DNA of 64,000 nt, taken from NCBI GenBank assembly GCA_963779615.1, contig CAVZZA010000001.1, positions 64,001 to 128,000 of the forward strand, read 5' to 3'. This document shows, in pieces, positions 49,545-55,082 of the stretch. Position 1 is the first letter of the stretch. Every line of letters starts with the position of its first letter. The DNA is from an uncultured Nitrososphaeraceae archaeon. GTDB lineage: Archaea; Thermoproteota; Nitrososphaeria; Nitrososphaerales; Nitrososphaeraceae. The position numbers and the translations under genes are program-made. The notes beneath the pieces are model-generated. The model worked only from the letters and a program-made list of their open reading frames with translations. It was not told where the DNA came from and did not search any database.

Positions 49545-50684
49545 TTAAATATTTTTATAACTAGAGGCTTTAAAGCTATACAGGTACCGTTTTCTCTCAT
49601 AAATCATCAAAACAATGATTCCTACAACCAACATCACCTCTAATGACTTATCCAATATTCCGTATATGTCAACATCCTCAGGATGAGTGTTTGGGGAAAG
49701 GGGAGGCGGAAGGGTTACCGCATACAGATACAAAAGAATCAAAAAAAGAGATCCCCCCAGTCCAATCCAATTAAGCCTTAAAGACTTTTTATAATATTGC
49801 TTGGATATTAGCAATTTATTTGACTTTTTGATGCGAGGATCACTATCGTCTGAGAAAATCAGCAAGAAATACATGATTCCATACCCGATTTGAATAGCCG
49901 AGGCTGAGAGCAAAAAAACACTGTACTCCAACCTCAAACCACCATGTTCAGGGTAGACAGCCAGGTGAACCACTGCCGCACCCAAAGCCAAAAGCAAAAC
50001 AGAGTACTTTATAAAATCATAATTAGAGATCGGATCAACAGACTTGTTTTTTCTTCTGTTCCAAAATCCCCAAAACAAACCAACGCCCACGACAGCAATA
50101 ACACCAAACACAGAGGCAAATATAACTAATGAAAAAATTGAGCCAAAATTTTCCGATATTGACACGTTAAAGACACCTCTTTCGCAATGACAACCGGTAC
50201 TGTCGTTCAAGATTGTCCTGGGGGGAGGAACTGTGTTGATTATTTGGCTGCTGCTGACATCATCATTTAACACACTAAGCACAATTTCATAATTGCCAAT
50301 CTTGGGGAATACAAACGGAACCTCAAAATCCCCGATGTCTGCCCTTGTCCATGGAAAAACAGAAACTCTTTCGTTAGTTTTTGCGGAGTAAATTTCAACC
50401 ATGACTATCACGTTATGTACATCGCGCCCATCCCTATCCTGGATGCTGAACATGATTTTTGACAATTCGTTTGGTTTTGCATAGGCGGGTTCAAGTTGCT
50501 CATTGACATAGTATTTGTCGCTGATGCCAAATCCTGCGGTATTATAATGGCCCAAATGGTCAAAATGGCCATGTGCAAATTGAGAAGAAGATAAAAAAGT
50601 GAGATAGAGAAACGCAACAAGGAAAGCCAGAACCAATGCTTTGGTGCGGTCTTTAACACTGTTTTTTAGAACCATAAAAACCAC
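49545..50684 (-). CDS. Membrane protein with a His-rich N-terminus, an extracellular Ig/YtkA-like domain and a C-terminal TM bundle (putative copper-handling)
   Basis: Signal peptide then HFDHLGH; F.FP..G.YEI; CHC; TM motif HLAVYPEH; last gene of the cox cluster. Confidence 0.65.
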   Translation of the reverse strand: MVFMVLKNSVKDRTKALVLAFLVAFLYLTFLSSSQFAHGHFDHLGHYNTAGFGISDKYYVNEQLEPAYAKPNELSKIMFSIQDRDGRDVHNVIVMVEIYSAKTNERVSVFPWTRADIGDFEVPFVFPKIGNYEIVLSVLNDDVSSSQIINTVPPPRTILNDSTGCHCERGVFNVSISENFGSIFSLVIFASVFGVIAVVGVGLFWGFWNRRKNKSVDPISNYDFIKYSVLLLALGAAVVHLAVYPEHGGLRLEYSVFLLSASAIQIGYGIMYFLLIFSDDSDPRIKKSNKLLISKQYYKKSLRLNWIGLGGSLFLILLYLYAVTLPPPLSPNTHPEDVDIYGILDKSLEVMLVVGIIVLMIYERKRYLYSFKASSYKNI

Positions 50685-50688
50685 CCGG

Positions 50689-51276
50689 TTATAAATCAGA
50701 CTTGCTTGTGAAAAAGTTAGCTGAGGACTTGGAATTAGATGGCGATGAGTTGAATGAAAGGGATGTGGCAGATGATGGGGATTGGGAGGAGGGTGAGGAA
50801 GAGGAAAGGTGAGATGAAGAAGACAGTGAAGACTTTAGCTTTTGGTTGGTGTAAAATGTGCTTATGACAACAAAAACAAGACTGCTGAATAATACCAATC
50901 CCAACCCAAGATGTGCAGTAACCAAAAGAGCGTGCAGTTTTTCAGTGATTACGGTTGCACCCAAAGCTATTTGGCCCAATACTGCACCTGCAGCTATGAC
51001 GGAAAAGATCTTTGTAGAGCGCTCCGGATTTTTTCCTTTGACCACAAAGACCGCAGTGAGAAAAACCAAAAGGCCAGTGGTTGCAGCTATGGACCTGTGA
51101 GTATACTCAACTAAAAACTCAGCCGAGGGAACTAAACCATGCGGGCAAAGTGGCCAGTCAGGGCATGATAAACCAACCCCACTGGAGCTAACGTATCCAC
51201 CCATAAACATCAAACCAAACAAAACACACAAGGTAAACAGGGAGAACATTAGAAGAAATTTATCGTAATTCATCAT
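50689..51276 (-). CDS. ctaA: Heme A synthase (short archaeal CtaA/Cox15)
   Basis: GLSCPDWPLC, EYTHR, conserved TM His (VTAH); Ser-rich tail. Confidence 0.92.
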   Translation of the reverse strand: MMNYDKFLLMFSLFTLCVLFGLMFMGGYVSSSGVGLSCPDWPLCPHGLVPSAEFLVEYTHRSIAATTGLLVFLTAVFVVKGKNPERSTKIFSVIAAGAVLGQIALGATVITEKLHALLVTAHLGLGLVLFSSLVFVVISTFYTNQKLKSSLSSSSHLSSSSPSSQSPSSATSLSFNSSPSNSKSSANFFTSKSDL

Positions 51277-51328: not shown

Positions 51329-51661
51329 AAAAAGAAGAAATGGGGATAAGGAGGAGAAGACAGGCCTATAGACCGACTACGCCGTGACAGTTAGCGTTCC
51401 TTTCATGAAGGGATGCACTGTGCAGTGGTAAGGATAGTCACCAGCAGCCAAAGTCGATGTGTCTATTTTTGCGGACTTTCCTGCCATTATGAGGCTCGTG
51501 TCAAACGATTTGCCGGTTGTGGGGTCATCTGGCCCCTCTCCGTTGGTTGCCGTATGCGGGGCATTGTCATCGTTTACCACGTTGACTGAATCACCCTTCT
51601 TCACGGACAATTTTGCTGGCTCATATGATGGATTGCCTTGGGTTGAAGCGCCAGAGGGAAT
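51329..51661. repeat. Direct repeat copy 1 (cupredoxin domain plus 3' non-coding region)
   Basis: Near-identical to 54088-54419; about 5 substitutions and 1 indel by eye. Confidence 0.92.
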
Positions 51662-51910
51662 GGATAGAGTACCGGCTGGAGGGGCGGCTGTTTGGGCACC
51701 CGAACCAGCACCACCCCCACCTGGTGCGGCTTGTGTTTCCTCAGGTGAAGGTTTAGGCACCGACACAGGTGGTGGAACGCTTAACATAAAGTGCCAGTTG
51801 GCTATTATGACAAAGCCAACAACAGCCATGAAAGCAAAGACAACAATCAAGCCTTTGCCCAAGCGGCCGGGTGTTGTCCTAATGATGCGGTTCTCGTCGT
51901 GCGAAGTCAT
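51377..51910 (-). CDS. Membrane-anchored type-1 blue copper protein (cupredoxin)
   Basis: TM helix, Pro/Gly linker, PHTAT...YHCTVHPFM.G ligands. The ATG at 51910 overlaps the coxA end. Confidence 0.92.
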   Translation of the reverse strand: MTSHDENRIIRTTPGRLGKGLIVVFAFMAVVGFVIIANWHFMLSVPPPVSVPKPSPEETQAAPGGGGAGSGAQTAAPPAGTLSIPSGASTQGNPSYEPAKLSVKKGDSVNVVNDDNAPHTATNGEGPDDPTTGKSFDTSLIMAGKSAKIDTSTLAAGDYPYHCTVHPFMKGTLTVTA

Positions 51911-54087: not shown

Positions 54088-54419
54088 AAAAAGAAGAATG
54101 GGGATAAGGAGGAGAAGACAGGCCTATAGACCGACTACGCCGTGACAGTTAGCGTTCCTTTCATGAAGGGATGCACTGTGCAGTGGTAAGGATAGTCACC
54201 AGCAGCCAAAGTCGATGTGTCTATTTTTGCGGACTTGCCCACCATTATGAGGCTCGTGTCAAACGATTTGCCGGTTGTGGGGTCATCTGGCCCCTCTCCG
54301 TTGGTTGCCGTATGCGGGGCATTGTCATCGTTTACCACGTTGACTGAATCACCCTTCTTCACGGACAATTTTGCTGGCTCATACGATGGATTGCCTTGGG
54401 TTGAAGCGCCTGAGGGAAT
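54088..54419. repeat. Direct repeat copy 2 (cupredoxin domain plus 3' non-coding region)
   Basis: Near-identical to 51329-51661. Confidence 0.92.
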
Positions 54420-55082
54420 AGACAATGTAACTGAAGGTCCACCTGCATTTGTCGCATTGGATGCGCCAGCTGCATTTGATGCATTTGTTGCAGAAGATGA
54501 CGTGGCGTTTTGTGCAGGTGAGCCCGGTTTAACCAATGTTTCATATCCGGTGCCTTGTGATACCTCACCACCACCACTTGTTAGCGGATTGATAACTGTC
54601 GCAAATCCTGTGCCGCCTGATATCAATGGTTTTTCCGGGTTGCTTGGGACGGATTGGGTTCCATTGTTTTGCTCAACAAACAACTTTGCCCTCATGTCTT
54701 GATGTCCCTGGCCACGGTCCTCCCTGCATTCAATGAGGTATTCCCCGGGTTTGTCAAACACATTCCACATTGTGTTAACCCTACCCGGCACTGCATCCAT
54801 AAGAAGCGCAAAATCCGGCACTGCAAAATCGTGAAGAACATCAGTTGCAATCAGTTCAAATCTATAGGGTATATCCGTCTTCAAATGAAGCTCGTTTATC
54901 TCTTGTGTTCCATCCGCATGCTCGAAAGACCAAAACCACTGTTGGCCTATAACTCTAACAGTTTCAGAGTTGGGAGGAGCGTACTCCAACGTGTGTTCCA
55001 CCCTCCAGGACTCTGCGCCCACCCAAACCAACAGGGCAATTACAACAAGAACATATGCCCACTCAGGAGTGGCGTGTCCCAT
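54135..55082 (-). CDS. coxB: Heme-copper oxidase subunit II with an altered CuA motif and a fused C-terminal type-1 cupredoxin
   Basis: GQQWFW.F, DVLH.F, DAVPGR, CREDRGQGHQDM, then a linker and PHTAT...YHCTVHPFM. Confidence 0.93.
   Translation of the reverse strand: MGHATPEWAYVLVVIALLVWVGAESWRVEHTLEYAPPNSETVRVIGQQWFWSFEHADGTQEINELHLKTDIPYRFELIATDVLHDFAVPDFALLMDAVPGRVNTMWNVFDKPGEYLIECREDRGQGHQDMRAKLFVEQNNGTQSVPSNPEKPLISGGTGFATVINPLTSGGGEVSQGTGYETLVKPGSPAQNATSSSATNASNAAGASNATNAGGPSVTLSIPSGASTQGNPSYEPAKLSVKKGDSVNVVNDDNAPHTATNGEGPDDPTTGKSFDTSLIMVGKSAKIDTSTLAAGDYPYHCTVHPFMKGTLTVTA

Follow-up and report, generated by a model that had tools for sequence, protein, structure and literature searches.

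A private Asp-Arg pair in the CuA loop of a cupredoxin-tethered archaeal cytochrome oxidase subunit II: a probable consensus error in an ordinary gene of Candidatus Nitrosocosmicus

Can the subunit II of a heme-copper terminal oxidase lose one of the two cysteines bridging its binuclear CuA centre, and does a blue-copper domain carried by the same polypeptide have anything to do with such a loss? This question is raised by coxB, a gene found in a stretch of 64,000 nucleotides (hereafter the window) covering positions 64,001 to 128,000 of contig CAVZZA010000001.1 in the assembly GCA_963779615.1 of an uncultured Nitrososphaeraceae archaeon. A preliminary description, made from the letters of the window, had presented the gene as one that lost a CuA cysteine and gained a type-1 copper domain, hence either as an oxidase with a rewired electron entry or as a decaying copy. 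As argued below, these two features have separate histories, i.e. the fused cupredoxin belongs to the whole lineage together with a canonical CuA loop, whereas the missing cysteine is confined to one assembly, where it is probably a local error of the consensus sequence.

The CuA loop of the deposited gene and of its relatives

The deposited CoxB is a protein of 315 residues, the translation of which includes ...YLIECREDRGQGHQDMRAKL... (open reading frame, ORF, 54135..55082, minus strand) and in which the Pfam domain PF00116 COX2 spans residues 67-130 with 58.2 bits for a cut-off of 22. Its CuA loop reads C-R-E-D-R-G-Q-G-H-Q-D-M, each residue having its counterpart in the QCSELCGINHAYM loop of the Paracoccus chains 1qle_B and 1ar1_B (subunit II), and the codons concerned bear out the Asp-Arg in place of Tyr-Cys that was initially described. 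The retention of the upstream His, the first Cys, the His and the Met was also correctly reported, the CuA ligands H84, C119, E121, H127 and M130 all being present at invariant columns. The second bridging Cys of the C-x-E-x-C-G motif is absent and Arg123 (CGT) is found instead. Altogether, the protein contains two Cys, namely C119 and C301, and the 315 residues are devoid of any CxxCH motif. In the C-terminal part, PF13473 Cupredoxin_1 (residues 225-313) and PF00127 Copper-bind (residues 230-313) are both matched above their cut-offs, the two scores over residues 225-313 being 49.4 bits (cut-off 27) and 35 bits (cut-off 21.2), and the ligand set H257, C301, H304 and M307 is in place, in agreement with the complete cupredoxin previously noticed behind a linker.

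Regarding the distribution of the Asp-Arg pair, the C-x-E-x-C-G motif is kept in all 28 aligned relatives (23 congeners and 5 members of other families) and the pattern H...CREYCGxxHxxM is found in 79 of 80 Nitrososphaeraceae loci, the 80th of which does not reach the loop. Among the N-terminal sequences of 84 distinct relatives, 22 columns are invariant and this genome departs at a single one of them, by C123R; since Cys123 is the only invariant column so affected, the Asp-Arg pair is more than chance variation. The cluster of CoxB proteins at 90% identity comprises 23 members, 15 of which were seen, and the 14 other than the window protein all read CREYCG; the exact window protein is itself recorded on one contig only. 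Compared with 13 members of this cluster, Asp122 and Arg123 are the only private differences within residues 1-170, and coxB shows neither a frameshift nor an internal stop, nor any further private change in these first 170 residues.

The same holds true at the nucleotide level. The relatives provide 89 distinct DNA versions of the loop, all of which have TGY at position 123; at position 122, TAY is present in 87 and CTN in the other 2, and no one-step intermediate (GAY or CGY) was found in this set. The contigs of close strains that cover the codons, i.e. three DNA contigs from run X2 and one RNA contig from run X3, carry on the plus strand A for G at 54716 and A for C at 54719, which gives TAC TGT. 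These are the only two of four runs to cover the codons (in the bin 54709-54749, the depth was 0.27 for X1 and 0 for X4), and the runs X1 to X4 report what close strains carry rather than the source sample. In addition, a pattern scan of metagenomes allowing Tyr or Asp and Cys or Arg returned two matches of about 87% DNA identity, both with TAC TGT, so that the derivation of the pair from TAC TGT by two separate base changes, as first proposed, is supported by the two metagenome contigs as well as by the close-strain contigs. In a collection of 185,579 species genomes, from which the genome of the window may itself be missing, the pattern C-R-E-D-R-G-xx-H-xx-M had 15 matches, none of them in a CoxB and all in out-of-frame stretches of bacterial genes, for roughly 17 matches expected by chance (a rough estimate). 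The comparison with the CoxB of relatives, envisaged in the preliminary description as a check, thus gave a clear outcome, with the second Cys kept throughout; as far as the compared sequences tell, the Asp-Arg pair is private to this one assembly.

The genome in question is that of a Candidatus Nitrosocosmicus ammonia oxidiser, assembled in 5 contigs for 3.17 Mb with a completeness of 92.5%, and archaeal AmoA is encoded in it. In a search of the whole genome with Pfam COX2, coxB was the sole match above the cut-off, the runner-up reaching 15.2 bits in a 63-aa frame; a protein search of the genome with CoxB retrieved elsewhere only matches to the cupredoxin domain. The second coxB whose existence had been considered was therefore not found in the genome-wide COX2 search. 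COX1 likewise had a single match genome-wide, namely coxA, which departs at none of the 91 columns invariant in 51 relatives, and cytochrome bd was not found when looked for in this 92.5% complete assembly. coxB is the ordinary and sole subunit II found of the heme-copper terminal oxidase of this archaeon.

Consensus error or mutation

The Asp122-Arg123 pair is probably a local consensus error of this assembly, the true codons being TAC TGT. This reading is favoured since selection would remove a real change in a sole subunit II but leaves consensus errors unfiltered, and the weight given to it comes from the conjunction of a sole subunit II, documented errors in the assembly, the absence of the variant elsewhere and the absence of any accompanying change. 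The errors were documented with 184 ORFs of at least 200 aa, taken from a 400-kb portion of a complete congener; 161 of these ORFs were matched in the genome, 132 of them in an orthologue-like manner. While 111 of these 132 genes form one intact stretch and 15 are partial, 6 are split between frames at abutting coordinates, namely those encoding elongation factor 1-alpha, PCNA, anthranilate phosphoribosyltransferase (TrpD), aspartate kinase (with three shifts), a GPN-type GTPase and an MFS transporter. In elongation factor 1-alpha (G000:C3 near 309150, where G000 is the host genome and C3 one of its contigs), a 1-nt insertion interrupts the conserved G-V-G-T-V-P-V-G-R stretch, and the only other match in the genome is 27% identical; since this single-copy gene cannot really be broken, the assembly does contain consensus errors. 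A completeness of just 92.5%, although the assembly has only 5 contigs, was counted toward the same reading. Besides, other cluster members, derived from metagenomes (P0011, P0023, P0073 and P0082), also show radical, private singletons at conserved positions, for instance W51C in the QQWFW motif of CoxB (P0011) or W45C in the 90-aa protein encoded upstream; one-off anomalies of this type are a known kind of noise in such data, at a background level.

Several observations nonetheless weigh against a consensus error. No sequencing run was found to contain at least half of the sampled words, the best share being 0.36, and we infer the error from the indirect evidence above. The documented errors of the assembly are indels and not substitutions, and an excess of substitutions was not found, with 0 of 91 invariant columns changed in CoxA and, for two further conserved proteins, two mild private changes (V256I and I400T) in the one of 574 aa and none in that of 567 aa, within the 0-6 observed in other genomes. 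A methylation-linked miscall was considered, the plus strand of the relatives reading AGTACT, which contains GTAC, and a systematic effect of this type is unsupported, with 293 occurrences of AGTACT for 333 expected, an observed/expected ratio of GTAC of 0.81 in the genome compared with 0.85 in 400 kb of a congener, and no clear motif shared by the frameshift sites. An ectopic template, be it gene conversion or mis-polishing from a paralogue, was likewise discarded, as the 19-mer (with up to 3 mismatches) and the 13-mer (with up to 1 mismatch) occur at the site only. Finally, both changes fall at first codon positions, keep the frame and yield an acid-base pair, and a real double mutation could look alike.

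A mutation of this kind would be a very recent, strain-private multi-nucleotide lesion that abolishes the binuclear CuA and leaves the sole terminal oxidase crippled; it would be transient and not an adaptation. Such a lesion is possible but doubtful. It is consistent with the change being present in the deposited sequence within an intact ORF, with the substitution-error rate not being raised in CoxA or the two other conserved proteins, and with neither motif nor paralogue accounting for an artefact; the frame-split genes, if they were real pseudogenes, would even point to relaxed selection. This last argument is undermined by elongation factor 1-alpha, the frameshift of which cannot be that of a real pseudogene, so that at least some of the anomalies are errors. 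Ammonia oxidisers need oxygen respiration, and the lesion would have hit the sole coxB, next to the sole coxA, of an AmoA-bearing genome in which cytochrome bd was not found, and cells with a disabled oxidase are unlikely to dominate a population abundant enough to be assembled in 5 contigs. The Cys is moreover kept in every other sequence examined, where no intermediate is seen. The same genomic setting speaks against a redundant gene in decay with a canonical copy elsewhere doing the work, which is scarcely credible. The part left unassembled at 92.5% completeness gives room for a second copy and is the sole support for this idea, against which stand a genome-wide COX2 search finding this gene only, a single COX1, the conserved operon position beside an intact coxA, and residues 1-170 without frameshift, stop or other private change. 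The decaying copy put forward in the preliminary description is accordingly not supported, the ORF being intact and coxA unaltered at its invariant columns.

A real change in a working enzyme is very unlikely; in that case, His84, Cys119, His127 and Met130 would bind one copper as a type-1-like relay, or the site would be bypassed, with the tethered cupredoxin feeding electrons. The His-Cys-His-Met set is indeed retained and a complete type-1 domain is tethered on the same polypeptide, and engineered Cys-to-Ser variants of CuA give mononuclear copper centres. Yet, the tether is no adaptation to the loss, since relatives combine it with an intact CuA; no lineage, no intermediate and no second-shell change accompanies the switch, and placing in the metal site an Arg, which is bulky and cationic, beside a new Asp is a non-conservative ligand swap. 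Besides, bacterial oxidases mutated at a CuA ligand are left with little of their activity. That the Asp-Arg pair is at once real, fixed in the strain and part of its only, working terminal oxidase, i.e. a natural purple-to-blue conversion of the electron-entry site, is highly improbable. If true and functional, it would be the first natural enzyme of the cytochrome-oxidase type without a binuclear CuA centre, and it would bear directly on how electrons are fed to oxygen in cytochrome-c-free ammonia-oxidising archaea. With a consensus error as the preferred reading, the locus is more likely a cautionary case, where a striking loss of a catalytic residue is seen in one error-containing assembly and nowhere else.

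A two-piece subunit II with a fused cupredoxin and its gene neighbourhood

Whatever the status of the two codons, the architecture of the protein is shared by the lineage. A total of 109 loci were fetched in two sets of 29 and 80, which overlap in genomes. In 69 of the 109 loci, the ORF with an intact CuA loop goes on to include a type-1 motif, while 25 end before the domain could be seen and 2 have no CuA-loop ORF; in the 13 others, a stop codon is reached without a type-1 motif, and 9 of these 13 are short forms, belonging to other families or to Nitrososphaera-labelled records. When 29 fused CoxB from Nitrosocosmicus and other Nitrososphaeraceae lineages are aligned, the type-1 ligands H257, C301, H304 and M307 are invariant in all of them, as are the CuA ligands H84, C119, E121, H127 and M130, and positions 122 (Tyr) and 123 (Cys) fail to be invariant solely through this genome. 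The cupredoxin fusion is ancestral in Nitrosocosmicus and other Nitrososphaeraceae. As the fusion accompanies a canonical CuA loop in every relative examined and Asp-Arg is private, the loss of the Cys and the fusion are unrelated, and the initial idea of a cysteine lost and a blue-copper domain gained as linked events is not supported. The linker between the two domains contains two copies of GTG(F/Y)xT(V/L)(I/V)xP followed by an Asn/Ser/Thr-rich stretch with several N-x-S/T sequons; conservation of this motif pair is limited to the aligned Nitrosocosmicus sequences, the linkers of other genera being shorter and lacking it.

The membrane part of the subunit also departs from the textbook layout. 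Of 108 loci, 105 have a homologue of the 90-aa ORF immediately before coxB, and in 94 of these 105 its frame differs from that of coxB. Being conserved and mostly in another frame, this ORF argues for a subunit II genuinely made of two pieces, and it is read as the separately encoded N-terminal membrane piece, comparable to subunit IIa of B-type oxidases. No paper describing the CoxB-cupredoxin fusion was found in open-access full texts and preprints; the form of CoxB present across the lineage is little described, and the window gene is an ordinary member of it.

The coordinates of these elements and of the neighbouring genes are collected in Table 1. The order coxB-coxA on the same strand is also that of relatives, and in the window the two genes are separated by 723 nt, in which no convincing ORF was seen when this gap was inspected for genes. 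Directly downstream of the CtaA-like gene, a 379-aa ORF (49545-50684, minus strand) has no Pfam match; it combines an N-terminal signal or anchor, a His-rich HGHFDHLGH sequence, a soluble domain and several C-terminal transmembrane helices, and may encode an oxidase-assembly or copper-handling protein.

Table 1. Location of the features discussed (positions in the window, except for the frame-split sites, which are given by contig of genome G000)
Feature	Position	Strand	Remarks
coxB, main piece of subunit II, 315 aa	54135..55082	minus	From the ORF list; one transmembrane helix, CuA cupredoxin domain, long linker, C-terminal type-1 cupredoxin
His84 codon	54831..54833	minus	Upstream CuA His ligand, kept; column invariant in relatives
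CuA loop C119-R-E121-D122-R123-G-Q-G-H127-Q-D-M130	54693..54728	minus	Residues 119-130
Asp122 GAC (54717..54719) and Arg123 CGT (54714..54716)	54714..54719	minus	TAY TGY (Tyr Cys) in relatives
CoxB linker	54411..54671	minus	Residues ~138-224; most variable region between strains
Amicyanin-like type-1 cupredoxin	54144..54410	minus	Residues 225-313; ligands H257, C301, H304, M307
90-aa ORF, two hydrophobic helices	55082..55354	minus	Stop overlaps the coxB start (ATGA); no Pfam match
coxA, heme-copper oxidase subunit I, 510 aa	51879..53411	minus	Pfam COX1, 447.5 bits
Free membrane-anchored plastocyanin-like protein, 177 aa from internal ATG	51377..51910	minus	Cluster members named 'plastocyanin' by their sources
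Short CtaA/COX15-like heme a synthase gene	50689..51276	minus	Pfam COX15-CtaA, 67.6 bits; downstream, same orientation
Repeat copy 1	54088..54422		Last 289 nt of coxB and ~46-47 nt past the stop
Repeat copy 2	51329..51664		3' end of the plastocyanin-like gene and downstream flank
Frame-split sites in G000	C3:309146-309156; C3:883942-883967; C3:1026944-1028306; C3:1028787-1028812; C1:249435-249439; C3:677620-677639		All outside the window

The end of coxB and that of the free plastocyanin-like gene form a direct repeat of 336 bp, with 329 of 336 bases identical (98%) and the copies 2.8 kb apart. In other congeners, the cupredoxin part of the CoxB query (~185-315) is 51-65% identical to the neighbouring free plastocyanin-like gene. 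Judged from the sequence, the repeat looks like a recent gene-conversion tract. A related metagenome contig of 1842 nt (L034) joins coxB directly to the region downstream of the plastocyanin-like gene through its bases 1-618 and 334-1842, skipping coxA; coxA may have been deleted there by recombination, but a collapse of the repeat in that assembly is more likely. In the protein collection, a 'Logan' source label is present on the products of four flanking genes and absent from the exact CoxB, CoxA and plastocyanin proteins; taking this as the sign of a disagreeing independent assembly was rejected, as all three genes are situated within the 336-bp repeats or between them, a region that a k-mer assembly would collapse, which makes the absence of the label uninformative. 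As a separate observation on base composition, GATC is rare in the genome (G000), with an observed/expected ratio of 0.67 versus 0.91 in 400 kb of the congener G012, which may reflect a restriction-modification system.

A tethered copper carrier in the archaeal oxidase

Sequence comparison with solved structures places the N-terminal part of CoxB nearest to cytochrome c oxidase subunit 2 chains and its residues 231-313 nearest to amicyanin. Like the subunit II of the Paracoccus denitrificans aa3 oxidase (1qle_B, 1ar1_B), CoxB has by sequence a CuA domain of cupredoxin fold (E ~1e-13), the CuA ligands of the QCSELCGINHAYM loop are matched in the alignment by His84, Cys119, Glu121, His127 and Met130, and the gene is likewise encoded next to subunit I. 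In contrast to the canonical aa3 enzyme, the deposited CoxB has Arg for the second bridging Cys, the main coxB gene encodes one transmembrane helix, the other membrane piece being supplied by the separate 90-aa gene, and a type-1 cupredoxin is added at the C-terminus. A kinship with the CyoA-like subunit II of quinol oxidases, in which CuA is lost, was considered and rejected, 5 of the 6 CuA ligand positions being kept and CyoA chains matching weakly (E ~1e-7 to 1e-8). The best-scoring solved chain for CoxB, 4txv_B, reads CSELSG, with a Ser at the position of the second Cys, and is presumably an engineered trapping mutant. In such engineered variants of CuA, the same ligand position is replaced as in the window CoxB and the rest of the loop is kept; they are, however, laboratory Cys-to-Ser replacements, whereas the window CoxB has Arg with an adjacent Asp in a natural-sequence deposit of unverified accuracy.

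Regarding the amicyanin-like domain, amicyanin chains match CoxB residues 231-313 with E ~3e-7 and share with it a short C-x2-H-x2-M loop and an upstream His. Unlike free amicyanin or plastocyanin, the domain is here tethered to CoxB, while a near-identical free membrane-anchored copy is encoded downstream of coxA. The same overall architecture is that of caa3-type oxidases, where the CuA domain is followed by a tethered one-electron carrier on one polypeptide, and 2yev_B, which we take to be the Thermus caa3 enzyme, is among the solved-chain matches of CoxB. The carrier in the window CoxB is a copper cupredoxin and not a heme c, and the likeness is architectural only. As for the 90-aa piece, B-type (ba3) oxidases have a subunit IIa, a small and separate membrane polypeptide that replaces the missing helix of a one-helix subunit II (PMC3128077). 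The window piece is likewise a small, separate membrane polypeptide and is analogous by role; it differs in being 90 aa long with two hydrophobic segments and in being encoded immediately upstream with overlapping stop and start.

Taken together, a plausible electron path can be drawn from the domain composition, the ligand sets and the conservation observed. The main piece of subunit II would present CuA outside the membrane and would carry the amicyanin-like copper domain on a linker of ~85 residues of glycosylation type. Electrons would reach the binuclear CuA from the tethered cupredoxin, or from the nearly identical plastocyanin that is encoded as a free protein next to coxA, and would pass on to heme a and then to the heme a3-CuB site. 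The tethered domain would thus be an in-built electron carrier, playing with copper the part that a fused cytochrome c domain has in caa3 oxidases, and could itself receive electrons from a pool of copper proteins; such a pool, in place of c-type cytochromes, is proposed in papers on ammonia-oxidising archaea (PMC7785015, PMC10030591). An in-built carrier as in caa3, with copper replacing heme c, appears to be the most economical reading, for which we infer the direction and the partners of the transfer.

Beyond the two deviant codons, the lasting result is a descriptive one, that is a split subunit II in which an amicyanin-like domain is tethered beside an intact CuA in Nitrosocosmicus and several other Nitrososphaeraceae lineages. 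For the respiration of these archaea, the tethered cupredoxin can now be named as a concrete candidate for the copper protein long assumed to donate electrons to the archaeal complex IV.

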